Assembly: GCA_036004525.1 (NCBI GenBank) | Contig: DASYRJ010000033.1 | Coordinates: 6,266-70,265, forward strand | Direction: 5' to 3' | Origin: Gemmatimonadales bacterium | GTDB lineage: Bacteria; Gemmatimonadota; Gemmatimonadetes; Gemmatimonadales; GWC2-71-9 | Length of the DNA stretch: 64,000 nucleotides | In this document: piece after piece, positions 45,950-61,576 of the stretch | How positions within the stretch are numbered: the stretch's first letter is position 1 | How the letters are laid out: every line of letters starts with the position of its first letter | Position numbers and translations under genes: made by a program | The notes under the pieces: generated by a model | What the model was told of the DNA's origin: nothing | Databases searched by the model: none | The model's input: only the letters and a program-made list of their open reading frames with translations

Positions 45950-46393
45950 ATGAACCCGCACCATGCTTCCCGCCTGGCCGTCGCCGGCGCGCTCGCCTGC
46001 GGGGGGACGGCCGTGCCGCCGCCGGGGAGTTCCACGCCCGGGACCGCCGCCGTGACCACGATCGTCCCGAGCGAGACCGATGCGCGGGTACCGCGGGTGG
46101 AAGAGATGCTGCGCGGCGTGCCGGGTCTCGAGGTGACGCGGCTGCCGAACGGGAACTATCAGCTGCGCATCCGGGGCCCGCGCAGCATCAGAGGGAACCC
46201 GGGCGACGACAATCCGTTGCTCGTGATCGACGGGATTCCGATCCCGAACGAATCCATCGGCAGCATGCTGGCCGACCTGGCGCCGCGCGACGTCGCGCGG
46301 ATCGAGGTGCTCAAGGATGCATCGGCGACGAGTATGTACGGATCACGCGGCGCCAACGGCGTGATCGTGATTACCACCAAGCGGGCACGATAG
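45950..46393 (+). CDS. Stand-alone TonB-dependent-receptor plug-fragment lipoprotein 2 (paralog)
   Basis: Lipobox GALAC. LRIRGPRSIRGNPGDDNPLLVIDGIP..VLKDASATSMYGSRGANGVIVITTKR. Confidence 0.65.
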   Translation: MNPHHASRLAVAGALACGGTAVPPPGSSTPGTAAVTTIVPSETDARVPRVEEMLRGVPGLEVTRLPNGNYQLRIRGPRSIRGNPGDDNPLLVIDGIPIPNESIGSMLADLAPRDVARIEVLKDASATSMYGSRGANGVIVITTKRAR

Positions 46394-46404
46394 GAGGGAT
46401 CGTC

Positions 46405-48432: not shown

Positions 48433-49709
48433 AAGGCCATGGCCTGTTCGTCGCCCTGAATGTGCCCGGACTGGGGGTCGGTGCGGAGCGCCCGGCCGGT
48501 CCACTGCGCGATATTGCCGAGGTGACACAGCAGCACGCTCTTCGCCCCCTCCGCGATCGGCTGGGTCACCGGCGCGCCCGTGCGGATCGCCTCGACAAAA
48601 TTCGCGATGTGGAGCGTGGTGAGCAGGTCGTCCCCGCTCGGCGCCAGGGGATCGGCGACCGCGGGCGCGATCGATTCCTTCACGACCTTGCGGTCCAGAT
48701 CGTACACCGTGTAGCCGTCCTGGTCCATCACGACCGTCCCGGTCGTCCCGTGCACGATGGTGCCGCGGCCGCGATTCTCCGTGGGGAACGGATTGCAGCT
48801 CAAGCCCTGCCACACGATCGCACGCTGACCCTCGAACTCGAAGCCGGCTTCCTGGGTATCGGTGAACTCCCAATCGTCTTCGAAATGATACCGACCGCCC
48901 ACCGACGTCACGCGCACGGGGTAGTCGACACCCAGGGCCCAGCGGGCGACGTCGATCTCGTGGGTCCCGTTGTTGCAGATCTCGCCGGTGCCCCAGCGCC
49001 GGAACCAATGCCAGTTGTAGTGGATGACGTTGTCCCGGTACGGCGTGCGGGGCGCCGGTCCCTGCCACAGCTCGTAGTCTAGGCCCGACGGGACGGGCAC
49101 GGCCTTGCCGCGGCCGATCGAGCGGCGCCGGTTCGCGTACCAGGCACGGGCCAGATAGGGACGTCCGATCGCCCCTTCCCGGACAGCCTGGACCGCCTCC
49201 TGGGCGCGGGGGGAAGACCGGCGCTGCGTGCCCATCTGGACCACGCGCTTGGCCTTGCGCTGCGCCTCCACCAGCAGCTCGCCTTCGCGCGGATTGTGGC
49301 CGCAGGGCTTCTCGACGTACACGTGTTTGCCCGCCGAGAGCGCCAGGATCGCCGCGGGCGCGTGCCAATGGTCGGGGGCGGCGATCACCAGCGCGTCGAT
49401 CGTCTTGTCCTCGAGGGCGCGGCGGAAGTCGACCAGCCCCTTGGGGGGGGCGCCTTTCGCCTGGGCTGTGCCGACGGCCGCCACGCCCTTGGCGAGCACC
49501 TGCGCATCCACGTCGCACACACAGGCGACTTCGGTGTTGGGCGTCTTGGCGAACACGCGGGCGAGGACGGTGCCGCGGCCGTTCAGGCCCATGACCGCGA
49601 CGACCACCTTCTCGGCCGGCGAGCCGCGGAGCGCGAGCAAGGGTGCGCGGGCGGCCGCGAGCCCGAGGCCCGTCGCCGAGACGGTCTTCACGAAGTGGCG
49701 GCGCTTCAC
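48390..49709 (-). CDS. Gfo/Idh/MocA oxidoreductase with Tat signal (periplasmic)
   Basis: VKRRHFVKTVSATGLGLAAA twin-arginine leader. VAVMGLNGRG Rossmann motif. YVEKPCGH. Confidence 0.85.
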   Translation of the reverse strand: MKRRHFVKTVSATGLGLAAARAPLLALRGSPAEKVVVAVMGLNGRGTVLARVFAKTPNTEVACVCDVDAQVLAKGVAAVGTAQAKGAPPKGLVDFRRALEDKTIDALVIAAPDHWHAPAAILALSAGKHVYVEKPCGHNPREGELLVEAQRKAKRVVQMGTQRRSSPRAQEAVQAVREGAIGRPYLARAWYANRRRSIGRGKAVPVPSGLDYELWQGPAPRTPYRDNVIHYNWHWFRRWGTGEICNNGTHEIDVARWALGVDYPVRVTSVGGRYHFEDDWEFTDTQEAGFEFEGQRAIVWQGLSCNPFPTENRGRGTIVHGTTGTVVMDQDGYTVYDLDRKVVKESIAPAVADPLAPSGDDLLTTLHIANFVEAIRTGAPVTQPIAEGAKSVLLCHLGNIAQWTGRALRTDPQSGHIQGDEQAMALWQREYAPGWTPAV

Positions 49710-50476
49710 AGCGGTCTCACTTTGATGTTGCGGAAATAGACCTCATCGCCGTGATCCTGCAAGACGATGTGTCCCCGGCGGCGGTCGGCAAAGCCGGGGA
49801 TCGAGCGGTACTTGCTCTTCGCGAGGAGGGAGTCCATGCGCGCGGTGCCCAAATCGAACTCGACGATCTTCCGGCCGTTGAGCCAGTGCTCCCCGTGGTT
49901 GCCGCGGAAGATGACGGCGGCCCGGTTCCATTCGCCCACGGGACGCAGCTGCTTCGCGTCGCTCGGCGCGATCAGGTCGTACAACGCGCCGGAGCGGTGG
50001 GTGGGCAGCTTCCCGTCCTCGTGCCGATCGTCGTCGATCATCTGGTACTCGAACCCCAGGGCCGAGTGGTTCGGAGCGATGGCGCCGCGGGCGACGGCCG
50101 TGGGGGTCATCGCGCCGTTCTGGGCGATCGACATTTCCTCGGAGACGTTGTACTTGACGCCGCTGTTCGCCCCCGGCGTAACCTTCCACTCCCAGGTCAG
50201 CTCGAGGTCTCCGAACGTCTCCACGGTCATCAGGTCGCCGCCGTTGAGGGGTCGCCCGTCTGCGACCCGGGGGATGTCGCCGCTCGCGATCTTCTTGATG
50301 GCGCCGTCCACCACGACCCAGTGCCCGGTCGGCACGGTGTCGTAGCCCAGCCCGCGCCAGCCGGCCAGCGTGCGTCCATCGAACAACAGCTGCCAGCCGG
50401 CGGCACGTTCGGGGGCGGTCAGTTCATTGGGCCCGCTCGTTTGGAAAGCGAGGACGAGGATGAGTGGCGTGATCAT
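49706..50476 (-). CDS. DUF1080 / 3-keto-disaccharide hydrolase-like protein (secreted)
   Basis: ATGA overlap with the MFS stop. GWQLLFDGRTLAGWRG, FGDLELTWEWKV, ANSGVKY, HIVLQDHGDEVYFRNIKV. Confidence 0.8.
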   Translation of the reverse strand: MITPLILVLAFQTSGPNELTAPERAAGWQLLFDGRTLAGWRGLGYDTVPTGHWVVVDGAIKKIASGDIPRVADGRPLNGGDLMTVETFGDLELTWEWKVTPGANSGVKYNVSEEMSIAQNGAMTPTAVARGAIAPNHSALGFEYQMIDDDRHEDGKLPTHRSGALYDLIAPSDAKQLRPVGEWNRAAVIFRGNHGEHWLNGRKIVEFDLGTARMDSLLAKSKYRSIPGFADRRRGHIVLQDHGDEVYFRNIKVRPL

Positions 50477-51768
50477 GGCGTCTCCTTCAGCCGGGCGGGC
50501 TCGAGCCTCGGGGCGAGAATGTGGATGATCGTCCAGGCGGTCACGTAGGCGAGCCCGCAGACAATGAAGATGGGTGTGTAGTCGTTCCCGTTGGCGTCGA
50601 GGATGCGGCCGGTGACGCGCTGGAACGCCCAGCCGCCGATGCCGCCGGCGAACGCCCCGATACCGACCACCGAGCCCACCGCCGCGCGCGGGAACATGTC
50701 GCTGGCCAGCGTATAGACGTTGGCGGACCACGCCTGGTGCGCCGCGGCGGCGACGCTGACGATCAGGACGGCGGTCCACATGCTCCCCGCCAGGGGCGCC
50801 AGGACCGTGGGCAATATCAGGAGCGCCATGGCGAGCATGGCAGTTTTGCGCGCCCGGTTGACCGTCCAGCCCCGCTTGATCAGCGCGCTCGAGAGCCACC
50901 CACCGCCCACCGAGCCTACGTCCGCGATCACATACACGACGATGAGCGGCAGCGCGACCTGCGCCAACTTGATGCCGTACTTGGCGTCCAGAAACTTCGG
51001 CAGCCAGTACAGATAGAACCACCACACCGGATCGGCCAGCAGCTTCCCGACGGCGAACGCCCAGGTCTGGCGATGGGTCAGGAGGTGGGCCCAGGGCACG
51101 CCGGCCACCGGCGCGTCCGGCGGATCGCTCAGGATGTGCGCGCGCTCGGCCTCCGACACGCGCGGATGCTGCTCGGGGTTCCGGTACACGGCCAGCCAGA
51201 AGACCAGCCACAGGAAGCCGAGTGAGCCCGTCGCGATGAAGGCCCACTGCCAGCCCCAGGTCAGCGCGATCCAGGGGACGATGAGCGGCGTGAGGATCGC
51301 GCCCGTGTTCGTGCCGGCGTTGAAGATGCCGGTCGCGAGCGCCCGTTCGCGCTTCGGGAACCACTCGGCGACGGTCTTGATCGCGCCGGGAAAATTGGCC
51401 GACTCGGCGACGCCCAGGAACGCCCGCGCGGCGGAGAACGCGGCGGTGGTGCGGGCAAAGGCGTGCGCCATGGCCGCCAGGCTCCACGCGACGACCGCCG
51501 CCGCGAACCCGCGCCGCACGCCGATCCGGTCGAACAGCCGCCCGGCCGCGAGGAAGGCGAACGCGTAGGGCAGGCTGAACCACGACACGACGTCGCCGTA
51601 CGCGGCCTCGGACCACCCGAGTTCGCGTTGCAGCGTCGGCGCCAGAATACCGAGCACCTGCCGGTCCACGTAATTGATCGTGGTGACGACGAACAGCAGG
51701 GCGCAGATCGTCCAGCGGTACCCGAAGAGGCGGGTACGGACCGGCGCCGGAGCGGCGGTCCACGTCAC
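50473..51768 (-). CDS. MFS transporter, hexuronate transporter (ExuT)-like
   Basis: 12 predicted TM segments. INYVDRQVLG. GRLFDRIGVRRG loop motif. Confidence 0.8.
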   Translation of the reverse strand: MTWTAAPAPVRTRLFGYRWTICALLFVVTTINYVDRQVLGILAPTLQRELGWSEAAYGDVVSWFSLPYAFAFLAAGRLFDRIGVRRGFAAAVVAWSLAAMAHAFARTTAAFSAARAFLGVAESANFPGAIKTVAEWFPKRERALATGIFNAGTNTGAILTPLIVPWIALTWGWQWAFIATGSLGFLWLVFWLAVYRNPEQHPRVSEAERAHILSDPPDAPVAGVPWAHLLTHRQTWAFAVGKLLADPVWWFYLYWLPKFLDAKYGIKLAQVALPLIVVYVIADVGSVGGGWLSSALIKRGWTVNRARKTAMLAMALLILPTVLAPLAGSMWTAVLIVSVAAAAHQAWSANVYTLASDMFPRAAVGSVVGIGAFAGGIGGWAFQRVTGRILDANGNDYTPIFIVCGLAYVTAWTIIHILAPRLEPARLKETP

Positions 51769-53327
51769 AACGTCACGCCTTCCTTCCAGATGGCGATCTC
51801 GCGATAGCCGTGCTTCTCGTTGTTGGCCAGCTCCCGTCCCGAGGCCACGTCGAGGATCAATGCGAACAGGTCATCGGCGAGCCGGTCCATGGTGGCCGAG
51901 CCGTCGAGCAGCGCCCCGGCGTTGAGATCGATCCAGTGCGGTTTCTTCTCGGCGATCGCGGTGTTGGACGAGATCTTGAGCGTCGGCACCGGAAAGCCGA
52001 GCGGGGTGCCACGGCCCGTCGTGAAGAGGAGCAGCGTCGCGCCGCTCGCGACCAGCGCCGTCGACGACACGCCGTCGTTGCCCGGCGACTCGAGCAGCGC
52101 CAACCCTCCCGCCCGCATCACCGCCGGCTCGCCGTAGCGCAGTACGTGAGTCACCGGCGCCCGGCCGCCCTTCTGGATCGCGCCCAGCGATTTCTCCTCG
52201 AGCGTGGTCAGGCCCCCTGCGACGTTGCCCGGCGACGGGTTCTCGTAGATCGGCTGCCCGTGGCGCAGGAAGTATCCCTTGAAATCGTTGACCAGCGCGA
52301 CGATGCCCTCGAACACGCGCTCATCGGCCGCCCGGTTCATCAGCACCCGTTCGGCGCCGAACATCTCCGGGACCTCGGTGAGGATCACGCCGCCGCCCAG
52401 CGCCGTCAGCCGGTCGGCGATGCGCCCGACGAGGGGATTGGCCGTGATGCCGCTCAACCCGTCCGACCCGCCGCACTTGTGGCCGAGGATCAGATCGGCG
52501 GCGGAACACTCCTCGCGCCGGTCGCGCTCCATCACGGCGACGAGCTGCCCCAGGGCCTCGAGCCCCGCCTCGACTTCGTCCGTGACGTCCTGCGAGTTGA
52601 AGAACCGGAGCCGCTCGCGCTCGACGTTCCCCGCGAGGTGGACCAGCTCGTCCATCTGATTGTTCTCGCAGCCGAGGCCGAGTACCAGGACCGCGCCGGC
52701 GTTCGGGTGGCGCATCAGGCCGGCCAGGGCGCGCTGCGTGTTGCGGAGATCGTCGCCGAGCTGGCCGCAGCCGTAGGGGTGCGAGAAGCTGTACACCCCG
52801 TCGATCCGGCTGCCGAACAGCGCCGCGCCCTCGCGGGCGATCCGCTCCGCCGCATGGTTCACGCAGCCGACGGTGTTGAGGATCCACACCTCGTTGCGCG
52901 TGCCCACGCGGCCGTTGGCGCGGCGGTACCCCATGAACGTCGCCCTCACCCCCTGGCCCCCGCTCCCCTTCGCTGCGCTCAGGGCAGGCTCTTCGGGAGA
53001 GGGGGAACGTGGGGGTGAGGACGGCTCGTATGTGTACTCCAGCACCCCTTCCAGGCACGTCTTGAGATTGTGCGAATGGACCCAGGCGCCGGGGGCGATC
53101 GCGGCGGTGGCGGCCCCGATCGGGAAGCCGTACTTGACGACCACTTCGCCCCGCGCGAGCGCGCGCAGCGCGACCTTATGGCCGGCGGGGACGTCCTCCA
53201 GGAGGGGTAACGCGCGCGTTGCCCCTGCCCCCTCGACCACGACCTCGCTCCCCGCGGTGAGCGCCCGAATCGCCACCGCGACGTCGTCCGCCGGGTGGAT
53301 TTTGAGCGCCTGTGCGGCCACGCTCAC
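51765..53327 (-). CDS. uxaA: Altronate/galactarate dehydratase family (UxaA-like) with an extra repeat-derived linker segment
   Basis: SAF N-domain (IHPADDVAVAI, AGHKVAL). TFMGYRRANGRVGTRNEVWI, GCVN, HPYGCGQ, LGCE. Insert SSPPRSPSPEEPALSAAKGSGGQGVRA. Confidence 0.85.
   Translation of the reverse strand: MSVAAQALKIHPADDVAVAIRALTAGSEVVVEGAGATRALPLLEDVPAGHKVALRALARGEVVVKYGFPIGAATAAIAPGAWVHSHNLKTCLEGVLEYTYEPSSPPRSPSPEEPALSAAKGSGGQGVRATFMGYRRANGRVGTRNEVWILNTVGCVNHAAERIAREGAALFGSRIDGVYSFSHPYGCGQLGDDLRNTQRALAGLMRHPNAGAVLVLGLGCENNQMDELVHLAGNVERERLRFFNSQDVTDEVEAGLEALGQLVAVMERDRREECSAADLILGHKCGGSDGLSGITANPLVGRIADRLTALGGGVILTEVPEMFGAERVLMNRAADERVFEGIVALVNDFKGYFLRHGQPIYENPSPGNVAGGLTTLEEKSLGAIQKGGRAPVTHVLRYGEPAVMRAGGLALLESPGNDGVSSTALVASGATLLLFTTGRGTPLGFPVPTLKISSNTAIAEKKPHWIDLNAGALLDGSATMDRLADDLFALILDVASGRELANNEKHGYREIAIWKEGVTL
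52944..53020. repeat. GC-rich nested palindromic repeat, copy 1 (inside uxaA)
   Basis: CCTCACCCCC-TGG-CCCCCGCTCCC-[27 nt]-GGGAGAGGGGG-AACGT-GGGGGTGAGG. Confidence 0.8.
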
Positions 53328-54379
53328 CGGGTGAAGTCCCGGTAGTACGTCTCGATCTGGTCCGGTGTGGCGGTGCGGGAAAGGATCAGCACACGATAGC
53401 GGAACGTGGTGGACTGTCCCCGCGCGAGCCGGAAGTTCAGCTCCTCCTTCCCGTTCGTGAACACCTTGCGGCCGAGCGGGTTGGCGGCGAACAGACCGTA
53501 GCCGCGCGCGTGCCAGTACGTCGGGAACCCGACATTCTGCGGGTGGTCCAGGATGGCGAGGGTCACGGGCTCACCCTCCACGGTGCCGGTGAGCATCGTC
53601 CAGCGACCGCGCGTGCCCCACACGGAGTCGCCCTCGAGGCCTTCGGAGCTGCGATAGCGGCCGGTGACGCCGTCGTTGTTGAGCATCGGCACCGTCGTGG
53701 CGTGGCCGGCGGCGTCGGTAAACACCTCGGGCGTATTGGACGGCTGCTCGAGCGCCCGCGCCACGCGCATGCCGATCAGCCCTTCCTTGTTGTCGGTGAA
53801 GGTCACGGGACCTCCGACGGCCGTGAGCGTCGTGATGCGGTCGACCTCGCGCAGGCCTTCGGCCGCACGGAAGATGAAGCGCGTGTCCTCGCGCAGCAGC
53901 GCCTTGCCCTGGGAGTCGACCCACTCCGCCGTCACGTCGAGCGTGCCTTCTCCCTCACCGCTGTGGACGCGGCGCACCGAGCGCTGGACGATGGTCCCCA
54001 TCTTGTCCGCGCGCGCCGGGGGGATGGCGTCGGAGTTGTTCCAGAAATCGAGCCCGCCGACGTCCCCGTGGTTGAACCACAGACCGACTTGATGCGGGTG
54101 ATCCACGCGCTCGCCGGGCCTGGGCTCGAGGGGCCAGCCGCGCGTGACCACCACCCCAGACGCCGCCCGCAGCGGGTAGAGCGTGGGCTTCTTGAGCGTC
54201 GTCGGCCAGATGTACGACGTAAAGGGTTTGCCGTCGACCGTGACGTCGACGCGGCGGTCGGCCTCGCGTGCCACGACGTCTACGCGAGGCTGCCTCACCC
54301 CCTGACCCCCTCTCGACTCCGTGGAGAGGGGGAACAAGGGGACGAGAGTCACGCACAGCAGCAACCAAGCCTTGCGCAT
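53324..54379 (-). CDS. PmoA-family / DUF6807-like secreted protein
   Basis: Signal peptide. DHPHQVGLWFNHGDVGGLDFWN motif. It neighbours Gfo/Idh/MocA genes, as I recall is typical of this family. Confidence 0.6.
   Translation of the reverse strand: MRKAWLLLCVTLVPLFPLSTESRGGQGVRQPRVDVVAREADRRVDVTVDGKPFTSYIWPTTLKKPTLYPLRAASGVVVTRGWPLEPRPGERVDHPHQVGLWFNHGDVGGLDFWNNSDAIPPARADKMGTIVQRSVRRVHSGEGEGTLDVTAEWVDSQGKALLREDTRFIFRAAEGLREVDRITTLTAVGGPVTFTDNKEGLIGMRVARALEQPSNTPEVFTDAAGHATTVPMLNNDGVTGRYRSSEGLEGDSVWGTRGRWTMLTGTVEGEPVTLAILDHPQNVGFPTYWHARGYGLFAANPLGRKVFTNGKEELNFRLARGQSTTFRYRVLILSRTATPDQIETYYRDFTR
54293..54348. repeat. GC-rich nested palindromic repeat, copy 2 (inside the PmoA-like gene, signal-peptide region)
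   Basis: CCTCACCCCC-TGA-CCCCCTCTC-[9 nt]-GAGAGGGGG-AACAA-GGGGACGAGAG. Confidence 0.75.
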
Positions 54380-54386
54380 GTGTGCC

Positions 54387-55727
54387 TCAACCCATCACGA
54401 TGTCTTGCTTGCCGTCGTCGAACGTAACCTTCCGTCCGGTGTGGATCGCGGCGACCGTCATGCACAGCGCCACGGAATGACTGTAGCCGGCGTCAATGGA
54501 CGCGTTGGGCTGCTTGCGCGAGCGCACGCACTCCATCCAGTTCCGCACGTTGGCGGTGGTGGACGAGTCGCCCCCCGTGTTCGCCGCGGTCTCCGTCGGC
54601 GCCACCTCGGACAGCTTCATCGTGGGCAGCTGATTGGCCTTCATGCCCATCTCCGCCGCGTAGCGCTCGGTGAGCCCGCCGTTGGGGGAGATCTCGTTCG
54701 TGTCGAGGTTCAGCATGCCGGCGTTCGAGTAGTACAGCTCCTTGGTGCCGCCGGCCCCGTTGGTCATGCGCGACGCGTACACGACCTGGAAGCCCTTTGA
54801 GGGATCGTCCAGCGGCCCGTACTCGAACACGATCGTGGCGGTGTCCCAGTTCTTGCGGCCGTCCTTCCACAGGTAGACGCCGCCGTTGGCCACGACGCTG
54901 CGGGGATGCGGGAAGCCCGTGAACCAGTGCACGGTGTCGATCTGGTGCACCATCCACTGGTCGGGGATGCCGGACGAGTACGGCCAGAAGAGCCGGTACT
55001 CGAGGTACTTGCGCGGATCCCACGCCTCGTACGGCATGTAGGCGAGGAAGCGCTTCCAATCGGTGTCCGTTTCCTTGATGGTGGAGACGAGCTGGGGCCG
55101 GCGCCAGCGGCCCGGCTGGTTCACGTTCCACGTCATCTCGGCCATGACGATATCGCCGAACTTGCCCGACCGGATGAACTCGTTGGCGGCCTGGTAATTG
55201 GCGGCGCTGCGGCGCTGGGTGCCGATCTGCACGACGCGGTCGGACTTCTTCACCGCGTCGCGGATCGCGACGGCCTGGTCCATGCTGTGCGCCAGCGGCT
55301 TCTCGATGTAGGCGTCCTTCCCGGCCCCGATCGCCTCGACGCCGTGGTAGGCGTGCAGGAAATCGGGGGTCGAGATCATCACGGCATCGGTCAGCTTCGC
55401 GGCGTACATCTCCTCGTTGTTGCGGAACGCGCGCGGCTTCGCGCCCATCACGCGCTCGATCTCCGCTACGCCCTCGTCGCGCCGCCGGTTCCAGATGTCC
55501 GACACGGCGACGATCTCGAAGTTGAGCGCGGGGCCGGCCGCCTTGAACGCGGGGAGCAGGGCCTGCCGGAACCGGTCGGAGAAGCCGACGATCCCGACCC
55601 GCACGCGGTCGTTCGCGCCCAGGATCCTGGCATAACCGGCGGCGGGCAGCGAGCTGAGGGCGGCGCCGGCGACGCCGGCTGCGGTACGCTTCACGAAGTC
55701 GCGCCGGGGCATTTTGCGTTTGGACAT
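54387..55727 (-). CDS. Gfo/Idh/MocA oxidoreductase with Tat signal (periplasmic)
   Basis: MPRRDFVKRTAAGVAGAAL leader. VGIVGFSDRF. YIEKPLAH. Confidence 0.85.
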   Translation of the reverse strand: MSKRKMPRRDFVKRTAAGVAGAALSSLPAAGYARILGANDRVRVGIVGFSDRFRQALLPAFKAAGPALNFEIVAVSDIWNRRRDEGVAEIERVMGAKPRAFRNNEEMYAAKLTDAVMISTPDFLHAYHGVEAIGAGKDAYIEKPLAHSMDQAVAIRDAVKKSDRVVQIGTQRRSAANYQAANEFIRSGKFGDIVMAEMTWNVNQPGRWRRPQLVSTIKETDTDWKRFLAYMPYEAWDPRKYLEYRLFWPYSSGIPDQWMVHQIDTVHWFTGFPHPRSVVANGGVYLWKDGRKNWDTATIVFEYGPLDDPSKGFQVVYASRMTNGAGGTKELYYSNAGMLNLDTNEISPNGGLTERYAAEMGMKANQLPTMKLSEVAPTETAANTGGDSSTTANVRNWMECVRSRKQPNASIDAGYSHSVALCMTVAAIHTGRKVTFDDGKQDIVMG

Positions 55728-55764
55728 CTCCCCTCCTCTATGAGTAGTGGACGCTGCATGTCGG

Positions 55765-56643
55765 TCAACCCGCCGCTCCCGCCCTGCGGCGGCCGGCGGC
55801 GGCGAGCCCGGCGATCACGCCGCGCATGTAGGCGAACGACCGCTGCATTCCCGGCGACGGGTCGTCGGCGTCGATCTCGTACTCGAGGTTGACGTACCCC
55901 GCGTAGCGGATCGCCTGGAGCTGCTGGAAGATCGCGGCGATGGGCATCGCGCCCTCGCCGACGATGCACTGGCTCCCTTTCGCGGTCAGGTCGCGCAGAT
56001 CCTTGGCGTGCATGTCCAGCAGCCGGGGCCCGGCATCCGCGATCGCACGCACGACGTCGGTGCCCGTCCGCGCGGTGTGACCGATGTCGATGCACAACCC
56101 CATGCGGGCGTCCATCGTCCGGACCTGCTTCAGCACATCGTACGGGGACGGGAAGCGCTTGTCCTCCGGACCGTGGTTGTGAATCGCGACCTTGATGTCG
56201 TACTCCCGGGCGAGCCGCTCGATGCGTGGCAGGATGGGGGGGTCCGCCGTCGCGACGATGAGCGGCATCCCGGCGCCCCTGGCGTAGTCGAAGTACTTCC
56301 GCACGCCCGCATCGGTATCCTGGTCGAAGGTGATCGTGCCGCCGCCCACGATCTCGAGGCCGGCGGCCTCGATCTCGCGCCGCGCGGCGGCCAGCTCGTC
56401 CGCCGACAGCTCGTACGGCAGGTGCACGGACTTGAGGTTGATATACCGCGTCCCGAGCGCTTTGACCATCTCGATGGCCTGCGCGCGCGTGAACTTGCGG
56501 AGCGAGTAGCTGGCCACGCCGAGCTGGATCTCCCCGCCACGTTCCCCCTCTCCACGTAGTGGAGAGGGGGCCAGGGGGTGAGGCACGAGGACCGCCGCCA
56601 CGCCCGCGGCGCTCGTCGCCAGAAAGGTCCGGCGGTCGGGCAC
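55765..56643 (-). CDS. Xylose-isomerase-like TIM-barrel protein (sugar phosphate isomerase/epimerase family) with Tat signal
   Basis: GTG start gives VPDRRTFLATSAAGVAAV. IQLGVASYSL, VAIHNHG, CIDIGH, VNLEYE. Confidence 0.8.
   Translation of the reverse strand: MPDRRTFLATSAAGVAAVLVPHPLAPSPLRGEGERGGEIQLGVASYSLRKFTRAQAIEMVKALGTRYINLKSVHLPYELSADELAAARREIEAAGLEIVGGGTITFDQDTDAGVRKYFDYARGAGMPLIVATADPPILPRIERLAREYDIKVAIHNHGPEDKRFPSPYDVLKQVRTMDARMGLCIDIGHTARTGTDVVRAIADAGPRLLDMHAKDLRDLTAKGSQCIVGEGAMPIAAIFQQLQAIRYAGYVNLEYEIDADDPSPGMQRSFAYMRGVIAGLAAAGRRRAGAAG
56530..56583. repeat. GC-rich nested palindromic repeat, copy 3 (inside the TIM-barrel gene just after the Tat signal; opposite orientation)
   Basis: The reverse complement reads CCTCACCCCC-TGG-CCCCCTCTCC-[7 nt]-GGAGAGGGGG-AACGT-GGCGGGGAG. 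Confidence 0.75.
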
Positions 56644-56645
56644 GC

Positions 56646-58292
56646 TCAGTATCCCGGGTTCTGCGGGTAGACGTTGCTCGTCCGGTCGATCTGTCGCTGC
56701 GGGATCGGCCGCAGCACGTGGAACGGCTTGATACTGTTCGAGCCCGTGGACTCCATCCAGTTGTATGCCTTCACGCGGGCCAGCAGGGTGTGTGTGCGCA
56801 CCAGGTCGAACCATCGCTGCATCTCGCCCGCCAGCTCCCGCGCCCGCTCGTTGAGAACCTCGGAGAGGGTGAACTGGGCAGGCGTCAACTCCATCTCCAG
56901 CTCGTGCCCGGGAATAGCGGCGCGCCGCCGCACCGCGTTGATGTACGGGAGCCCCTCCGCCGCCCGGCCGTCCCGCAGGAGCGCTTCGGCGGCGATCAAG
57001 TAGGTATCGGCCAGCCGCGCCACGAAGAAGTCACGAGAGCCGCGCTCGTCGTTGACGCTGAGGCGGAAGGGGTCGTGAAACTTGTTCAGCGACGGGAATA
57101 TCTTGTTGAAATACGACTTCGGGGTGTAGACGCGGTACGGCTTGGTTCGTGCCAATACCGTGTCGGCATCCGTCGGCGAGATGTAGACCGCGGTGTCGCC
57201 GAGCCGGAACTTGGGGACGCCCAGCGAGTCTCTCGGGATCGTCGCTGCGTTGTTGCTGTACCAGACGCGCGTGAACTGCGCGTCGTAGCGCGAGTCCTTG
57301 GTCCGGTCGTACAGGTTCAAGAAGAAGGTCGTGGGACGGAAGCGTTTGAACGGGCGGCCGTTGGCGATGTCGCGCGTCATCCCGGGGAGCACGTCGTATT
57401 CCGCCAGGAAGTACAGGTGCCCCTTGTTCCCGTTCCCCGTGGTGAGGGGATCGGGGGTGAACTGGACCGACCAGATGACCTCCCCGTTCCGCTCGTTGGC
57501 GAAGTCGAACACGTCCTTGAACCGCGACAACAAGGTGTACTGCCCGGAGTTGATGACCCGCTGCGCGTAATCGGCGGCGTTCGCGAAGTCGCCGGCCGCG
57601 AGCTTCGCGGCTTCGTCGGCGGTGGAGTCGGCGTCGCGGATGCGCGTCAAGTACACCTTGGCCAGCAGGTGCTGCGCCGCGCCCTTCGTCGCCCGCCCGT
57701 AGTCCTTCGCGACCGCCGGCAGGTTGGCCTCCGCATAGCGCAGGTCGCTGATGATCGCCTCGTACACCGAGTCGACGGGCGCCCGGGCCGCCTCGGTGCT
57801 GGGCGTGAGCGTCGGGTGCAGGCTGAGCGTTATGGGCCCGAACATCTGCACCAGGTCGAAGTAATAGAGGGCTCGCAAGAAGCGCAATTCGCCCACGCGC
57901 TGGGCCTTGAGCGTCGAATCGATCTGGACGAGCGGGGCCTGGTCGATCGCCGTGTTGGCGGTGTTGATCGCCCGATAGAAGTCGCCCCAGGTGTCCTGGA
58001 AGAACGACTCGGTGGGGTTCAACCCCGCCGTGTAATCGTTGATCACCTTGTGGCTCCCGTCGGACCCCTTGGTGTAGATGTCGGTCCCGAACTCGGTCAC
58101 CGTGAAGCCGCGCTCCTGCGCGTAGAAGCTGCGCAGCGGCTCGTAGGTGGCGTTGACGAGCGCGTTGAACGCCGCGGGCGTGCCGTACGCGCCGGGCGTG
58201 AGTCCGCTGATGGGGTCTTCATTCAGGTCCACGCAGCCGGGAAGGGCGGCCAGCAGTGCGGCGCCCAGCATCATGGCAGTGTGCTTGGTCAT
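56646..58292 (-). CDS. SusD/RagB family lipoprotein
   Basis: Lipobox LAALPGC. FLRALYYFDLVQMFGPI. C-terminal QNPGY. Confidence 0.85.
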   Translation of the reverse strand: MTKHTAMMLGAALLAALPGCVDLNEDPISGLTPGAYGTPAAFNALVNATYEPLRSFYAQERGFTVTEFGTDIYTKGSDGSHKVINDYTAGLNPTESFFQDTWGDFYRAINTANTAIDQAPLVQIDSTLKAQRVGELRFLRALYYFDLVQMFGPITLSLHPTLTPSTEAARAPVDSVYEAIISDLRYAEANLPAVAKDYGRATKGAAQHLLAKVYLTRIRDADSTADEAAKLAAGDFANAADYAQRVINSGQYTLLSRFKDVFDFANERNGEVIWSVQFTPDPLTTGNGNKGHLYFLAEYDVLPGMTRDIANGRPFKRFRPTTFFLNLYDRTKDSRYDAQFTRVWYSNNAATIPRDSLGVPKFRLGDTAVYISPTDADTVLARTKPYRVYTPKSYFNKIFPSLNKFHDPFRLSVNDERGSRDFFVARLADTYLIAAEALLRDGRAAEGLPYINAVRRRAAIPGHELEMELTPAQFTLSEVLNERARELAGEMQRWFDLVRTHTLLARVKAYNWMESTGSNSIKPFHVLRPIPQRQIDRTSNVYPQNPGY

Positions 58293-58308
58293 GGCTGTCT
58301 CTCCGCCT

Positions 58309-61300
58309 CTAGATGCCCAGGGTGACGCCCATCATCACCGTCCGGTAGCTCGGCACGCCGGGATTGGTGCGGGACTCGGGGTCCAGCCCCTTGAACTTGG
58401 TGAACAGGAACGGATCGAGCGCCGTCGCGTAGATCCGCAAGGACCGGGCACGAAACAGGCCTGCGCGGCCATCGGGCACGGTATACCCGACGGTGATGTT
58501 GCGGACACGGACGAACGATCCTTCCTCGTAGCCCCGCGCGTCGCCGTACAGCGGGAATTCCTGGTCGGCGTTGGGTCGGGGATCGGTGTTGGACGGGTTG
58601 GTCGGGGTCCAGTAGTCCGTGAGGATGTTGTTGTAACGGCCGAAGAGCTGGTTCTGGCCGGTGCGGAACTCGTCGTGCACCATGAAGTCCAGCCGCGCGA
58701 CCGCCATGACCGACAGGTCGATCCCCTTCCAGTCGAGCCGGCTCGTCAGGCTCCCCGTCCAGCGGGGGAAGGGCGTGCCGAGAATGACGCGGTCCGCGCC
58801 GTCGATCTTGCCGTCGCCGCGCCACTGTCCGGTGACGCTGTCGTAGACCGTCGGCTGGTCGACCACGCGAATCTGTCCGGGTTTCTGCGCGTACCCCAGG
58901 GCGGTGAGCGAGTCCTGATGCTGCCAAATGCCGGCGAACTGGTAGTCGTAGTACACGTCGATCGGCTGACCCACGAACCAGCCGTTGCCGATGTCGCGCT
59001 GCAAGCCGCTCGACAGCCGGACGATCCGGTTGCGATTCGAGGCCCCGTTGACGTCGACGTTCCAGCGCAGCCCATGCCAGTCCTGGACGAGCAGCGTGGA
59101 GAAGGCCACCTCGATGCCGGTGTTGCGCGTCGCCCCGACGTTCTCGAGAATGCTCGAATAGCCGGTGGTCGGCGGGAGCTGCCGCTCCATGATCAGGTCG
59201 CGGGTGTCGGCGCGGTAGTAGTCCACCGATCCCGACAGGCGGTTGTTCAGCGCCGTGAACTCGAGCCCCACGTCCATTTGGCCGGTCCGCTCCCACTTCA
59301 AGTTCGGGTTGGGCAGCCGGCCGGGCCGGTAGCCGACGGCCGCCTGACCGGCGAAGGAGTAGATCGTCCGGGTCAATGAGCCCTCGGTCTGATAGGGACT
59401 GATCGACGTGTTTCCGGTGACCCCGTAGCTGGCGCGCAGCTTCAGGTCGGAGAAGATCCGGGTGCGCCGCACGAGGTCTTCCTCGGACAGGCGCCACGCG
59501 ACGGCGACCGAGGGAAACAGCCCGTACTTCCGCCCGGGCGCCAAGCGCGAGGATCCGTCCCGGCGCGTGGTCACGGTAAACAGATAGCGGTCTTTGAGCG
59601 TGTAGTTGACGCGCGCCATCACGGACAGGAGTGACCACTCCTCCAGGCTGCTGTAGGGGGGGTCGACGTTGGTGGCCGACCCGATGTCGTAGAACAGTTG
59701 ATGCTCGTTGGCCACCCCGGTGACGTGCACCGTGTCGTCTTCGGTTCGCTGCTGCTGGATACTGTACAGGAGCGTGGTCGTGAGCCGATGGTCGTTGCCG
59801 AGCCGTCCGTGGAAGGTGAGGATATTGTCCAGCGTGTAGGCGAACGTCCGACTTTGCCACAATCCCGCGTCGGCGCCGCTCCCCTGCATCGCCTGCGTCT
59901 CGGCGCCGCGGAACACGCCCCGGCGATAGAACGTGAGGTCGGGGCCGAAGTTCAGGCGCCAGTTCAGCGCCGGCGCCAGATCGTAGTCGGCGAACAGCGT
60001 GCCGAACACCCGGGTGCGCTGGCGTTCGTCCATCCAATTCCGAATGTCGGAGAGCGGGTTGACCCGCTGCCCGTCGGGCGTGGGCTTGAACAGGATCTTG
60101 CCGGTGCTGTCGTAGGGCACGCCCAGGGGATTGTTGCCGAGCGCCTCACTGTAGACGCCATCGCCGCGGCCCAGGTTCTGGTCGGTGCGGATCAGGGACG
60201 TCGAGCTGCCGACCCGCAGCCGCGGGTTCAGCTCGTGGTCGAAGTTCAGGCGCATCGACCGCCGCCTGAAGTCCTGCGCGGTGATGATCCCATCCTGCTG
60301 CAGCTGGCCCAGCGTGAGGGCGAATCGGGTCCGCTCGTCGCCGCCCGTCACGCCCACCTCGTTGCTGACCTGCATGCCCTCCCGCAGCACGAGGCTCTGC
60401 CAGTCGGTCGAGAGCCCCGCCCGCATCGCCGCCAGCTCCTGGGGCCAGAACAGCTTGGCGTCGCCCGAGTCACAGACCGCGACGGTGCTCGGACACTTGT
60501 AGTTTCCCGTGGTCCGGTTCGCTTCCCGCTTGTGCTCGGCGAACTCCGGGCCGTTCATCATCCGGACGCGCCGCACCGGCTCCTGATAGCCGGCGTACGT
60601 GTCGTAGGTGATGTTGGTCGTCCCCGCCCGGCCCTGCCGGCTGGTGATGAGCACCACGCCGTTCGCCCCGCGCGAGCCGTAGATCGCCGTGGCCGACGCG
60701 TCCTTCAGCACCTCGATCGACTCGATGTCCCTCGGATTCAGATCGCCGATGCCCCCGGACATCGGAATGCCGTCGAGCACGTAGAGCGGATCGTTCGACG
60801 CGTTGAGGGACCGCGTCCCCCGCAGGCGGACGCGCACGCCGTCGCCGGGCTTGTTGCCGGTCGTCACGATGTCCACGCCGGGCACGCGCCCTTTGATCGC
60901 CTCGATGGCGTTCACCTTGGGCACCTCGTGCACGTCGTTCCCACCCACCGACGCCACCGATCCCGTGATGTCGCGGCGCACCTGCGTGCCGTAGCCGATG
61001 ACGACCACTTCCTGCAGCGCGACGGCCAGCTGCTGCAGACGGAAGTCCGCGGTCACGGTCTGCCCCGCCGTCACGACCACGTTCGGGACTTGCCAGAGTC
61101 CGTAGCCGATGAGTTGGGCCTGCACACGGTATGTCCCGGACGGCACGCCGCGGATCGTGTACCGGCCGTCAGGGCCGGCCTCCGCACCGAGCTTCGTGCC
61201 GACCACGGCTACCTGAGCGCCCTGCAGCGGCGTCCCGGTGGCCTGGTCCTGCACCATCCCGGTAATCGTGCCCCTGGCACCTGTGGTGTCCTGAGCGAGG

Positions 61301-61386
61301 GCGGTCTGGATTGGTACCAGAGCGAGCAGCGGTAAGAGAAGCGAGAGACGGAACGGAGCGACTGGGGACGACGTGGAGGCGGACAT
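58309..61386 (-). CDS. SusC/RagA-type TonB-dependent outer-membrane transporter
   Basis: Start at MSASTSS... Signal peptide ..IQTALAQD. GTITGMVQDQATGTPLQGAQV. VRLRGTRSLNASNDPLYVLDGIP..VLKDASATAIYGSRGANGVVLITSRQG. C-terminus MMGVTLGI. Confidence 0.9.
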   Translation of the reverse strand: MSASTSSPVAPFRLSLLLPLLALVPIQTALAQDTTGARGTITGMVQDQATGTPLQGAQVAVVGTKLGAEAGPDGRYTIRGVPSGTYRVQAQLIGYGLWQVPNVVVTAGQTVTADFRLQQLAVALQEVVVIGYGTQVRRDITGSVASVGGNDVHEVPKVNAIEAIKGRVPGVDIVTTGNKPGDGVRVRLRGTRSLNASNDPLYVLDGIPMSGGIGDLNPRDIESIEVLKDASATAIYGSRGANGVVLITSRQGRAGTTNITYDTYAGYQEPVRRVRMMNGPEFAEHKREANRTTGNYKCPSTVAVCDSGDAKLFWPQELAAMRAGLSTDWQSLVLREGMQVSNEVGVTGGDERTRFALTLGQLQQDGIITAQDFRRRSMRLNFDHELNPRLRVGSSTSLIRTDQNLGRGDGVYSEALGNNPLGVPYDSTGKILFKPTPDGQRVNPLSDIRNWMDERQRTRVFGTLFADYDLAPALNWRLNFGPDLTFYRRGVFRGAETQAMQGSGADAGLWQSRTFAYTLDNILTFHGRLGNDHRLTTTLLYSIQQQRTEDDTVHVTGVANEHQLFYDIGSATNVDPPYSSLEEWSLLSVMARVNYTLKDRYLFTVTTRRDGSSRLAPGRKYGLFPSVAVAWRLSEEDLVRRTRIFSDLKLRASYGVTGNTSISPYQTEGSLTRTIYSFAGQAAVGYRPGRLPNPNLKWERTGQMDVGLEFTALNNRLSGSVDYYRADTRDLIMERQLPPTTGYSSILENVGATRNTGIEVAFSTLLVQDWHGLRWNVDVNGASNRNRIVRLSSGLQRDIGNGWFVGQPIDVYYDYQFAGIWQHQDSLTALGYAQKPGQIRVVDQPTVYDSVTGQWRGDGKIDGADRVILGTPFPRWTGSLTSRLDWKGIDLSVMAVARLDFMVHDEFRTGQNQLFGRYNNILTDYWTPTNPSNTDPRPNADQEFPLYGDARGYEEGSFVRVRNITVGYTVPDGRAGLFRARSLRIYATALDPFLFTKFKGLDPESRTNPGVPSYRTVMMGVTLGI

Positions 61387-61576
61387 GGAACGACACCCCC
61401 GAGCGGCGTGACGGCCAACAAGCCACATGGGATCCTCCGAGTGGGCGCACTTCTCGTCTCGTTGGGGCGCGCAAAGCTCATGCCCTCACTGGTCGTCAGT
61501 GGTCGTCGCCAAGTGATTGGTGCGCCGATGTACCGGCGCGCACCGCTGCGCCGTCCAGGTGTCCGGTGTGGCGTGA

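Follow-up and report, generated by a model that had tools for sequence, protein, structure and literature searches.

How did three related G/C-rich palindromes come to lie, in frame, within three genes of one gene string? The initial annotation of the 64-kb stretch of Gemmatimonadales DNA analyzed here (the window) had placed such elements at 52944-53020, 54293-54348, and 56530-56583, and on re-reading, the exact coordinates and sequences match that description. Allowing up to three mismatches, the 23-mer GGAGAGGGGGYCAGGGGGTGAGG matches the window at exactly these three sites, with no matches in 100 dinucleotide-preserving shuffles; the arm sequences GGAGAGGGGG and GGGGGTGAGG each have four exact matches across the window, all within the three elements. 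A 40-nt three-arm pattern, for which no window matches are expected, matches copy 2 with one mismatch and copy 3 with none.

Host genes and the three copies

The host genes belong to a co-directional, minus-strand gene string at 50473..61428, in which ORFs and Pfam matches identify SusC (58309-61428), SusD (56646-58292), a xylose-isomerase-like TIM-barrel gene with a Tat leader (55765..56643; GTG start at 56641-56643), an element-free Gfo/Idh/MocA gene with a Tat leader (54387-55727), a DUF6807 gene (PF14100, 'PmoA-like'; 53324..54379, 351 aa), uxaA of the altronate dehydratase family (51765..53327, 520 aa), and an MFS transporter (50473-51768). The genes overlap by 4 nt or lie very close together, which suggests a single operon, one for sugar/uronate utilization; the string is syntenic in three related contigs (L001, L137, and L138).

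Copy 1 (52944..53020) is a long-loop, four-arm variant. It reads in the canonical (triplex-motif) direction on the minus strand, the sense of the uxaA mRNA. On the plus strand it reads CCTCACCCCC (52944-52953), TGG (52954-52956), CCCCCGCTCC (52957-52966), a 29-nt loop (52967-52995), GGAGAGGGGG (52996-53005), AACGT (53006-53010), and GGGGGTGAGG (53011-53020). It encodes UxaA residues ~102-129, SSPPRSPSPEEPALSAAKGSGGQGVRA, in the linker flanked by the SAF domain (residues 14-89) on one side and the catalytic domains GD_AH_second (133-265) and GD_AH_C (277-519) on the other. Alignment of 120 UxaA homologs, an approach that had been proposed at the outset, is consistent with an insertion: distant orthologs have a short, element-free linker, and the solved homolog PDB 6u7l is gapped across query residues 109-129.

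Copy 2 (54293..54348) also has the minus strand as its canonical strand, the sense of the DUF6807 mRNA, and consists of the three-arm unit TTCCCCCTCTCC-ACGGAGT-CGAGAGGGGG-TCA-GGGGGTGAGG (54293-54335, minus strand) and a degenerate fourth arm (54336-54348). Its peptide, TLVPLFPLSTESRGGQGVRQ (residues ~11-30), spans the end of a signal-peptide-like N-terminus, with hydrophobic residues upstream and the DUF6807 domain (residues 43-346) downstream. The N-terminus MRKAW... is kept in L001, L137, and L138, and the upstream ATG is therefore the real start.

Copy 3 (56530..56583) is a perfect three-arm unit with its canonical strand on the plus strand, antisense to the TIM-barrel gene; it is complementary to copy 2 at 86% over 57 nt. 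A CGTT and degenerate fourth arm (56530-56543) precede the Y arm (56544-56553), the loop ACGTAGT (56554-56560), the R arm (56561-56570), the spacer CCA (56571-56573), and the third arm (56574-56583). Read from the minus strand it encodes VPHPLAPSPLRGEGERGGE (residues ~20-38), immediately past the Tat leader; Pfam places TAT_signal at residues 4-22 and identifies AP_endonuc_2, and in four genomes the reading frames over this site show the leader (DRRTFL...) before the element and the barrel (IQLGVASYSL..., from residue 60) after it.

The peptides quoted in the initial annotation are thus correct, and the Pfam domain positions agree with its placements in the UxaA linker, at the signal-peptide end, and after the Tat leader. 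Its description of a nested palindrome applies in full to copy 1 only; copies 2 and 3 have only a degenerate fourth arm (GGGGACGAGAG and GGCGGGGAGA), and the unit conserved in the family has three arms. The proposal that each copy is translated in its own register likewise stands in part: copies 1 and 2 are translated from one strand, agree in register for the R and third arms (peptide GGQGVR), and differ in the Y arm only, because their loop lengths differ, and copy 3 is translated from the opposite strand. All three ORFs are intact across the elements, which must therefore be read through. RNA folding, also suggested in the annotation, predicts strong mRNA hairpins for either orientation of the element, at -55.3 kcal/mol for copy 1 (z -3.8), -37.9 kcal/mol for copy 2 (z -3.3), and -37.9 kcal/mol for copy 3 (z -3.8).

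Low-complexity peptides in linkers could be the product of protein-level selection, with a Pro/Gly/Arg linker or peptide motif arising by convergence and the DNA palindrome being incidental. However, one DNA sequence, translated from either strand and in several frames, gives unrelated peptides such as GGQGVR, PHPLAPSP, SPPDPLS, ERGPGGE, and LTPWPPL, and identical element DNA is found within AT-rich intergenic flanks and across many phyla. The strand and frame diversity identifies a repeat acting at the DNA level, not a selected peptide; it already refutes convergent low-complexity similarity, the alternative raised with the initial description, and we consider selection on the peptide extremely improbable.

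The repeat unit and its known relatives

What is conserved across genomes is (C)GTT-CCCCCTCTCC-loop-GGAGAGGGGG-YCA-GGGGGTGAGG, with a variable leading C/G. The repeat is ~43-77 nt long and ~80% G+C, and consists of a G/C hairpin and, after it, a purine third arm that is a mirror image of the hairpin's own purine arm, with predicted G.G, A.A, and T.A triads. Among bases outside the search pattern, the AGG completing the third arm is present in 98-99% of copies and the TT preceding the Y arm in 63-77%; the 5′ tag is weakly conserved (C 40%, G 46%, T 77%, T/C 93%). Loop 1 is 3-9 nt long, or 29 nt in one subfamily that has 106 matches in 42 flank contexts in metagenomes. The long-loop search pattern constrained the R arm over its first 4 nt only and left the Y and third arms free, and 79 of 104 units (about three quarters) have perfect Watson-Crick pairing and third-arm triads. 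The long loop of copy 1 (AGCCTGCCCTGAGCGYAGCGAAGG) is found again at another site in L137. One frame always contains a stop (TGA), four frames are open in >90% of 224 units, and the encoded peptides are low-complexity and rich in Pro, Ser, Gly, and Arg.

The repeat family is not new: in both its three-arm architecture and its 8-nt arm core, the window element agrees with BoxC/PIT/TM_ECO, which Holder et al. (2015, PMC4666352) describe in E. coli and other Proteobacteria as an intrastrand-triplex motif and Kaplan et al. (2016, PMC5100583) interpret as a G-quadruplex-hairpin switch. Of the known families, BoxC/PIT is the closest fit. Both have a pyrimidine arm, a loop, a purine arm, a 3-nt loop, and a mirrored second purine arm, as in the listed TM_ECO sequence CCCTCTCCC-TGT-GGGAGAGGG-CCG-GGGTGAGGG (PMC4666352), and the cores CCCTCTCC, GGAGAGGG, and GGGTGAGG are common to both, with equal A and T positions. 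Both are dispersed multicopy repeats with frequent inverted pairs and no known transposase, and a further likeness is the variability of their loci from strain to strain, TM loci being hypervariable between E. coli strains (PMC4666352). They differ in the 3-nt loop (CCG or TTA in TM_ECO, YCA here), in the arms (9 nt in TM_ECO and 10 nt here, with two G:C gained at the inner end and one lost at the outer end), and in loop 1 (3-6 nt in TM_ECO); with its 10-nt arms and other loops, the present element does not match the strict published TM_ECO pattern. Whereas all 23 TM_ECO copies in E. coli K-12 are intergenic (PMC4666352), the present element is in frame in three window genes and in many elsewhere, and it resides in Gemmatimonadota and many other phyla rather than in Proteobacteria. 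For the E. coli motif, triplex formation was unseen on double-stranded DNA or in vivo (PMC4666352).

CGTC-tagged REPs, which include Rickettsia RPE-4 and RPE-6 and Neisseria dRS3 (Di Nocera et al. 2013, PMC3733652), resemble the present element in their small G/C hairpin, short 5′ tag (here CGTT or TGTT), tail abutting the stem (a CCA-type 3′ tail; here YCA), and in-frame linker copies within genes, and a dedicated transposase is known for neither. However, the stems in these families are 8-9 bp long and open with two A:T pairs, the loops measure 4-5 nt, and a third arm is lacking, whereas the present element combines 10-bp stems of pure G/C and loops of 7 or 29 nt with a conserved third arm of 10 nt past the tail. 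In-frame, intragenic REP-type repeats outside Rickettsia are already known, having been described in linkers (PMC3733652). The likeness to Rickettsia palindromic elements (RPEs) drawn in the initial annotation is borne out as an analogy by the reading of both strands and the varied genomic contexts: RPEs too are selfish palindromes translated in frame at fold-compatible positions in many unrelated functional genes. As summarized in PMC10969869, RPE-1 and its relatives (Ogata et al. 2000, 2002) are Rickettsia elements of ~150 bp, a description that sets them apart from the shorter, three-arm, cross-phylum unit seen here. ERIC/RU-1, RU-2, and RU-3, intragenic in enterobacteria (Delihas 2007, PMC2759123), as well as RUP and NEMIS, are also small mobile repeats with open frames and in-frame host fusions, but they are longer and MITE-like, at 100-170 bp, are bounded by terminal inverted repeats, and are unrelated in sequence.

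Dispersal across genomes

At least 120 genome stretches, from ~10 phylum-level groups by record titles, contain an exact 20-mer of the element; represented among the matches listed are Gemmatimonadota, Acidobacteriota, Chloroflexota, Bacteroidota, Planctomycetota, Myxococcota, Armatimonadota, and others. The 20-mer is also present in 14 viral contigs, phage included. Most copies are intergenic, and in-frame genic copies are a minority; their hosts include AcrB-type pumps, PNKP, HemN, an amino-acid permease, a phage portal, a MetRS linker, aldehyde dehydrogenase, BlaR1-HEAT, FecR, and CN_hydrolase. The ORF test for these other genomes is a heuristic in GC-rich DNA; 13 of 16 proteins checked against Pfam have family matches.

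The data are mostly metagenome assemblies, in which misassemblies can gather at repeats, and chimeric joins or faulty binning could in principle have created the pattern. However, the ORFs are intact over all three elements, independent assemblies agree (contig L002 is 99.4% identical to the window over 7.7 kb, in addition to the three syntenic contigs), and the element is found in isolates, in the complete genome of Herpetosiphon aurantiacus DSM 785 (Chloroflexota) and in Hymenobacter strains (Bacteroidota); the probability of an artefact is next to nil.

With near-identical copies in many phyla and in phage contigs, the element evidently moves horizontally. No recurrent neighbor gene or transposase was found across 134 pattern-hit loci (L003-L136), and a search for target-site duplications, raised as a possibility in the annotation, found none, so we infer mobility solely from dispersal. 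No Rfam family was found for the element.

Occupancy and turnover at the orthologous sites

In five related operons the three sites are filled wherever the fetched contig covers them, with variation in repeat family and copy number. Elements occupy these three sites also in relatives whose UxaA is 75-99% identical; the insertions are therefore not lineage-specific, and the clustering of three copies, although real, reflects inherited occupancy of the operon rather than a recent burst. The same element, in the same orientation and position, is present in the window, L001, L002, L140, and at least nine more orthologs. A GTAG-type REP (GTAGGGGCGCAGCATGCTGCGCCCCTAC, peptide VGAQHAAPL), dispersed among the fetched loci, fills the orthologous DUF6807 and UxaA sites in relatives. 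GTAG REPs and REPINs are mobilized by RAYT transposases; unlike them, the present element has a third arm but no GTAG tag, and its surroundings showed no RAYT. At the DNA level, half-overwritten palindromes are found in L001, L245, and L246, and as these composite sites retain one arm of an earlier occupant, newer elements entered sites that were already filled. GTAG REPs within other palindromes have been described (PMC3733652).

Occupants of the UxaA linker, of varied families and orientations, are interspersed on the protein tree, and the linker is the sole obviously permissive spot in UxaA, as might be expected if insertion were random and independent in each lineage, with neither inheritance nor targeting, and copies survived in a few permissive spots only. 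However, a ~30-nt target would have been hit at least four to five times with tens of kb of flanking DNA, intergenic included, left nearly copy-free; this, the retained arms, and the shared orientation and position make such a history quite improbable.

We consider it probable that a dispersed, BoxC-like non-coding repeat landed in permissive junctions, was inherited, and has been unstable since. Copies would have landed in an ancestor of this Gemmatimonadales group at three junctions of one operon, namely the linker between the UxaA domains and the points where signal peptide meets mature protein in the DUF6807 protein and the Tat-exported TIM barrel, all of which may tolerate any flexible peptide. 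With four to five of the six frames of the unit free of stops, the insertions would be translated through and the frame held by purifying selection. The sites would have been inherited since then yet are unstable: unit number, loop variant, and even repeat family shift between close relatives, with incoming palindromes overwriting half of a resident one. We infer that the turnover results from structure-provoked instability (a hairpin or triplex at replication), that new palindromes insert preferentially into old ones, and that the element is selfish and non-adaptive.

Outside the three in-ORF sites, copies are nearly absent from the window and the ~20-kb orthologous loci, the sole one being intergenic in L138; such scarcity is odd for a random inserter, and a site-specific reason or a function is possible. 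The elements could be domesticated and kept because they are useful, with hairpins that pause ribosomes past a signal peptide or between domains and so aid Sec/Tat targeting or cotranslational folding, or that stabilize segments of the polycistronic mRNA. This would fit with the siting of all three at domain or signal-peptide boundaries, with the continued filling of these sites in every related operon examined (where the contig covers them) as the occupant changes, and with the high stability of the predicted hairpins (-38 to -55 kcal/mol) in both orientations. A filter for permissive sites would yield the same positions, however; the UxaA linker is short and repeat-free in a distant Longimicrobiaceae-like clade, the adjacent Tat-exported Gfo/Idh/MocA protein has no element in four genomes, and element-bearing genes elsewhere are mutually unrelated, with most copies lying between genes. 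Holder et al. report no functional link of TM_ECO to flanking genes (PMC4666352), and earlier E. coli work, in the form in which that paper cites it, describes PIT elements as lacking promoter or terminator activity. Domestication therefore seems unlikely to us.

As relatives have palindromic repeats of this family or others in the same linkers, "extragenic" repeats can persist and turn over within working proteins, far beyond Rickettsia. Between the window and its 99.4% identical contig, two of the five uxaA substitutions fall within the 77-nt element and one lies at its edge.

The three copies and the BoxC/PIT motif

Direct reading confirmed the sequences that the initial annotation had placed at 52944-53020 (copy 1, in uxaA), 54293-54348 (copy 2, in the DUF6807 gene), and 56530-56583 (copy 3, in the TIM-barrel gene). 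Aligned, the three share a common block CCTCACCCCCTGRCCCCCKCTC...GGAGAGGGGGAAC, and a 57-nt stretch of copy 2 is 86% complementary to copy 3. Within the 64-kb window, every exact match to GGAGAGGGGG, and likewise to GGGGGTGAGG, lies inside one of these elements; a search with the 23-mer GGAGAGGGGGYCAGGGGGTGAGG, allowing up to three mismatches, returned exactly the three copies, with no match in 100 dinucleotide-preserving shuffles of the window, and a 40-nt three-arm pattern for which no match is expected found copies 2 and 3.

The canonical strand coincides with the mRNA in copies 1 and 2 and is antisense in copy 3; it reads (G)TT-CCCCCTCTCC-ACGTAGT-GGAGAGGGGG-CCA-GGGGGTGAGG, such that a pyrimidine (Y) arm is followed by loop 1, a purine (R) arm, the trinucleotide YCA, and a third, purine arm. 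The nested four-arm palindrome initially proposed as the consensus holds for copy 1, where the outer fourth arm is intact, and does not hold for copies 2 and 3, where it is not. The stems are 10 bp of G/C only, with loops of 7, 7, and 29 nt (the longest being in copy 1) and heads of CGTT, TGTT, and CGTT, and YCA directly follows the R arm in all three. Copy 3 has 10/10 Watson-Crick pairs and 10/10 allowed triads, and copies 1 and 2 have one R-arm mismatch each. Predicted mRNA folds are -55.3, -37.9, and -37.9 kcal/mol for copies 1, 2, and 3, respectively (z about -3.3 to -3.8), and a search of 52500-57000 against Rfam with a relaxed cutoff returned nothing beyond chance miRNA-like hairpins (E >= 0.26, scores far under gathering thresholds).

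A full-text search with the arm sequences led to the G/C-rich intrastrand triplex motif of Holder et al. 2015 (PMC4666352), earlier named BoxC and PIT. The published pattern of its E. coli form (TM_ECO) is CCCTCNCCC-N3-6-GGGNGAGGG-N3-GGGNGAGGG, as in the example CCCTCTCCC-TGT-GGGAGAGGG-CCG-GGGTGAGGG; single strands form a stable triplex in vitro by CD and NMR, all 23 of the 23 copies in E. coli K-12 are intergenic, and the loci are hypervariable (PMC4666352). The same motif has also been read as a G-quadruplex-hairpin switch (Kaplan et al. 2016, PMC5100583). BoxC/PIT-type motifs have so far been described as strictly intergenic and studied chiefly in Proteobacteria, with G/C-rich triplex motifs counted in Cyanobacteria too.

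The window element has the same three-arm order as TM_ECO (a class II purine motif with G.G:C, A.A:T, and T.A:T triads), the two have the 8-nt cores CCCTCTCC, GGAGAGGG, and GGGTGAGG in common, and a relaxed core pattern matches copy 3. The reversed third arm GGAGTGGGGG mirrors the purine arm GGAGAGGGGG, and the resulting A.A and T.A triads match those of E. coli. Each arm, however, is 10 nt long, compared with 9 nt in TM_ECO, and the strict TM_ECO regular expression has no match in the window or in any related or matching locus; we therefore regard the element as a variant of the BoxC/PIT kind and not a literal member. Multicopy dispersal with unrelated flanks is common to both, whereas in placement they differ, as all three window copies are inside open reading frames. 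Judged by sequence, the element belongs with the BoxC/PIT kind, as a three-arm repeat that is dispersed; the structure predicted for it is the hairpin, at -38 to -55 kcal/mol as RNA.

Among units with the 29-nt loop of copy 1 (the long-loop subfamily), found with a pattern that, within the arms, specified just the leading 4 nt of R and left Y and the third arm free, 79 of 104 (about three quarters) have perfect triads. At four of these loci (L193, L197, L234, and L189) the innermost triad is changed in all partners, Y from C to T, R from G to A, and the third from G to A. Such joint changes (C:G.G to T:A.A), seen in few variants, hint weakly at a three-way constraint of triplex type.

By analogy, the element would work like the Rickettsia palindromic elements (RPEs) and the intragenic REPs of Di Nocera et al. 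2013 (PMC3733652). RPEs are palindromic repeats in frame in functional genes, which the window elements resemble in their intact frames, although the two are set apart by description, RPEs being about 150 bp and described in Rickettsia (PMC10969869), and the unit here 43-77 nt and about 80% G+C. CGTC-tagged REPs carry an unpaired terminal CGTC, TGTC, or CCTC tag; the head of the present family is a weak CGTY (C 0.40, G 0.46, T 0.77, T/C 0.93). CGTC-tagged REPs also have an 8-9 bp stem starting with two A:T pairs and a 4-5 nt loop, neither of which the element shows, while their short unpaired CCA-type 3' tail is matched by YCA (ACA is also found in its place in the long-loop subfamily). The element is not a GTAG REP, which as part of the REP/RAYT (REPIN) system is defined by a GTAG tag and a RAYT gene, since the window element has no GTAG. 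Nor is it a MITE, which has terminal inverted repeats and a target-site duplication, as the usual three-arm unit lacks terminal inverted repeats and the flanking direct repeats do not exceed in length those of shifted controls.

In-frame copies in coding genes

The host genes lie in a tightly packed minus-strand string coding for SusC, SusD, the TIM barrel, Gfo/Idh/MocA, DUF6807, UxaA, and MFS proteins. Copy 1 accounts for residues about 102-129 of UxaA. Pfam puts the SAF domain before this segment (14-89) and the second domain after it (133-265), and the alignment to the solved homolog 6u7l has gaps across this stretch; together these place the insert in the interdomain linker. In the TIM-barrel protein a twin-arginine leader (DRRTFL...) is upstream of copy 3 and the barrel downstream, and copy 3 must therefore be read through. 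The DUF6807 protein, for which an exact-protein look-up gave no record, has an N-terminus (MRKAW...) kept in relatives and a domain starting at residue 43. In-frame insertion into coding genes, as first claimed from the sequence, is thus borne out in that the frames are intact across the elements and the flanking domains would require read-through. The peptides quoted in the initial annotation are correct on conceptual translation (SPSPEEPALSAAKGSGGQGVR, FPLSTESRGGQGVR, and PHPLAPSPLRGEGER in the three host proteins). The statement that each copy is translated in a different register survives in part: copy 3 is read from the other strand, and copies 1 and 2 are on the same strand, with a GGQGVR register common to the 3' halves.

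The host operon (50473-61428) is kept in three related operons (L001, L137, and L138) and includes genes for SusC/SusD, periplasmic (Tat) TIM-barrel and Gfo/Idh/MocA proteins, DUF6807, UxaA, MFS, a 3-keto-disaccharide hydrolase, and UxaC, a gene set that suggests uronate or glycoside utilisation. The recorded gene calls in two of these (L137:6659-6816 and L138:6487-6662) begin the TIM-barrel gene only after the repeat array, and an intact in-frame Tat leader is thereby lost; N-terminal repeats of this sort probably cause systematic misannotation of start sites.

Copies in other genes were sought with a spanning-ORF test (at least 60 codons on each side, GC3 > GC1 > GC2), by which 28 of the 151 aligned matches to a conserved 20-mer are in long coding-like ORFs, with all five stop-free frames used; of the 35 long-loop contexts that could be tested, 16 are genic. 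Among 224 units, one reading frame always has a TGA and four are open in >90%, and because four frames are mostly open, insertions are frequently tolerated. A stricter and cruder GC3-based ORF test with 210-nt flanks, which misclassifies copies near gene starts (window copy 3 included) and was replaced by the spanning-ORF test and Pfam, put at least 75 of 131 matches outside any open frame, and the family as a whole is therefore still mainly intergenic.

Pfam recognised families in 13 of 16 element-bearing ORFs, the domains mostly flanking or spanning the element; these hosts include a polynucleotide kinase-phosphatase, HemN, an amino-acid permease, and a phage portal protein. Two AcrB-type RND pumps from different phyla, one in Hymenobacter mellowenesis M29 (L077, with two inverted units) and one in an Armatimonadota MAG (L126), carry the element in the same inter-half loop, at ACR_tran positions about 485-500. 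In a methionyl-tRNA synthetase, an essential enzyme, a long-loop element is in frame between the catalytic and anticodon-binding domains (L195:6349-8013), and other long-loop hosts from soil metagenomes are an aldehyde dehydrogenase (L161:8264-9751), a BlaR1-HEAT protein (L209:6322-8385), FecR (L143:276-1343), and a CN_hydrolase (L242:2117-3595). A triplex-type repeat in frame in genes is new when set against its invariably intergenic placement in E. coli K-12.

Dispersal and the conserved unit

The exact 20-mer CACCCCCTGRCCCCCTCTCC is present in 14 viral contigs and, among species-representative genomes, in at least 120 stretches. By record titles, the matches listed include Gemmatimonadales, Thermoanaerobaculia, Holophagales, Chloroflexota (among them the complete genome of Herpetosiphon aurantiacus DSM 785), Hymenobacter isolates, Planctomycetota, Myxococcales, Armatimonadota, Desulfamplus, SAR324, and others, as well as single contigs of MAGs labelled Nomurabacteria, Leptospirales, Ruminococcus, and Bacteroidaceae, with the label taken at face value. 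The spread of a triplex-type repeat over phyla and into phage contigs is likewise new. When the 151 matches are aligned in register, their flanks are unrelated except for a short head, (C)GT[T/C], and the AGG finishing the third arm is present in 98-99% of copies, though it lies outside the search pattern; the conserved unit is therefore the three arms. Across the family, loop 1 usually measures 3-9 nt, and a minority of units form, as copy 1 does, a complete nested palindrome of four arms. Some copies have AT-rich flanks (for example, L037), and the sequence must therefore be kept by something besides host base composition.

The loop of copy 1 is longer by 24 bases than that of its ortholog in L001, and the loop sequence AGCCTGCCCTGAGCGYAGCGAAGG recurs in another gene, at the TIM-barrel site of L137. 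A metagenome scan for long-loop units gave 106 matches in 42 distinct flank contexts, and the long loop marks a subfamily, not a private insertion.

The viral contigs are from IMG/VR (L003-L016), and in two of them (L007 and L014) the 20-mer is in frame near the C-terminus of the phage portal protein; phages could act as carriers of the element between hosts. An all-against-all BLASTP comparison of 1567 coding-like ORFs from 134 loci (L003-L136), examined for a recurrent neighbour gene or transposase, found that only phage genes of viral contigs and generic families recur. An RND pump was considered as a linked gene and rejected, the element being inside the pump in two of the four loci with a pump nearby and merely beside it in the other two. 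We also considered Shine-Dalgarno mimicry by GGGGGTGA and dropped the idea because copies within ORFs have no orientation bias (15 same, 13 opposite). The resemblance lies in potential pairing, including a single G-U, of the 16S rRNA 3' end (UCACCUCC) with GGGGGUGA at 56574-56581 of the window and with the third arms of the other copies.

A near-identical BoxC/PIT-type element is thus found across many phyla and phages, frequently in frame in real genes, some of them essential. Its sequence is conserved almost exactly across phyla, with no known mobilising enzyme.

Occupancy of orthologous sites

The nearest UxaA homologs are labelled Gemmatimonadales, and five related operons were compared (L001, L002, L137, L138, and L139/L140). 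The ortholog comparison proposed in the initial annotation found all three sites filled, in frame, in every relative whose contig reaches them. The junctions that hold the element in frame in the three window genes are repeat-bearing in relatives as well. The TIM-barrel site has 1 to 3 units in relatives, and the DUF6807 site holds either the element, in one to several units, or, beside a leftover third arm, a GTAG-type REP, GTAGGGGCGCAGCATGCTGCGCCCCTAC (peptide VGAQHAAPL). In the UxaA linker the triplex-type element is present in the window, L001, L002, and L140, with both orientations seen among orthologs, a GTAG REP occupies L137 (10250-10340), and two other palindromes, palindrome 3 (GAACGCGGAA...TTCCGCGTTC) and palindrome 4 (CGTCGGGGGCTCCC...GGGAGCCCCCGACG), occupy L138 (10280-10420) and L139 (1270-1340). 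Among 120 UxaA homologs (including P0002-P0075), nearly all members of the Gemmatimonadales clade have a repeat-derived peptide, with the types interspersed on the protein tree; a Longimicrobiaceae-like sister clade has a short, repeat-free linker. These alignments show that the sites are inherited yet turn over, and orthologous coding sites with conserved yet changing occupancy are also new.

Several sites are composites. A GTAG REP is joined to the right arm of palindrome 4 at L245:1290-1360 and to a triplex-element third arm at the DUF6807 site of L001 (8990-9040), and the UxaA linker of L246 has the left arm of palindrome 4 with palindrome 3 (the L247 linker was also examined). In this half-overwriting the newcomer replaces one arm and the loop and leaves the other arm, always in frame, a pattern suggesting that an extruded hairpin was either inserted into or repaired. 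Stems like palindrome 4 are present in six viral contigs and, among the loci examined, only at the UxaA site, and palindrome 3 has no match in viral contigs; dispersal was shown for the triplex-type element and the GTAG REP, and palindromes 3 and 4 are candidate repeat families. Apart from the three sites, copies are almost absent from the 64-kb window and from the orthologous loci, each about 20 kb long, the exception being an intergenic copy in L138, and the neighbouring Tat-exported Gfo/Idh/MocA protein has none in the window or in the relatives compared. Window positions 46474-54142 are 99.4% identical to L002 (JGI Ga0376052_0013318, a soil metagenome) over 7669 nt with no gaps; two of the five uxaA substitutions lie inside the 77-nt element and one at its edge, a small-number hint of a raised mutation rate.

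We propose that the element is probably selfish DNA tolerated at permissive junctions, where its hairpin or triplex potential would destabilise the sites, in keeping with the hypervariable E. coli TM loci (PMC4666352), and where resident palindromes would attract, or be overwritten by, incoming ones. There are precedents for REPs within other palindromes and for intragenic REPs in flexible linkers (PMC3733652). Alternatively, the hairpins may be of use by making translation pause at the edges of signal peptides and domains, although a selection filter predicts the same element positions, so that the same evidence serves both readings, and the repeat-free clade and the unrelated host genes elsewhere both speak against a general function of the hairpins. 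If the element is tolerated selfish DNA, RPE-like selfish DNA in proteins would extend to free-living soil bacteria. The elements are a natural supply of linker and signal-peptide variation.

We also entertain, as an unlikely extension, that palindromic and triplex repeats are self-renewing landing pads in the coding sequences of these soil bacteria, or, in a stronger version, that the hairpins have been recruited to pause translation at the boundaries of signal peptides and domains. A resident structure-forming repeat would provoke breakage or draw the next repeat, and the newcomer would overwrite half of the resident, so that protein linkers would be rewritten continually with the frame kept, in hosts including the essential methionyl-tRNA synthetase. 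Three junctions with changing occupants offer a concrete system for asking whether structure-forming repeats provoke instability or attract each other in coding DNA.

The window has other repeats. Runs of G5C/C5G units with long G or C homopolymer-like tracts are found at 9655-9689, 14983-15030, 21148-21183, 23107-23173, and 35771-35806; they would read as poly-Gly or poly-Pro in some reading frames and are unrelated to the palindromic element. Three regions, at 40877-41256, 45550-46403, and 60629-61005, have stretches of about 50-150 nt in common that are 70-80% similar; SusC/TonB-dependent receptor paralogs with a conserved N-terminal part are the probable source, which suggests that the window has several polysaccharide-utilisation-like loci.
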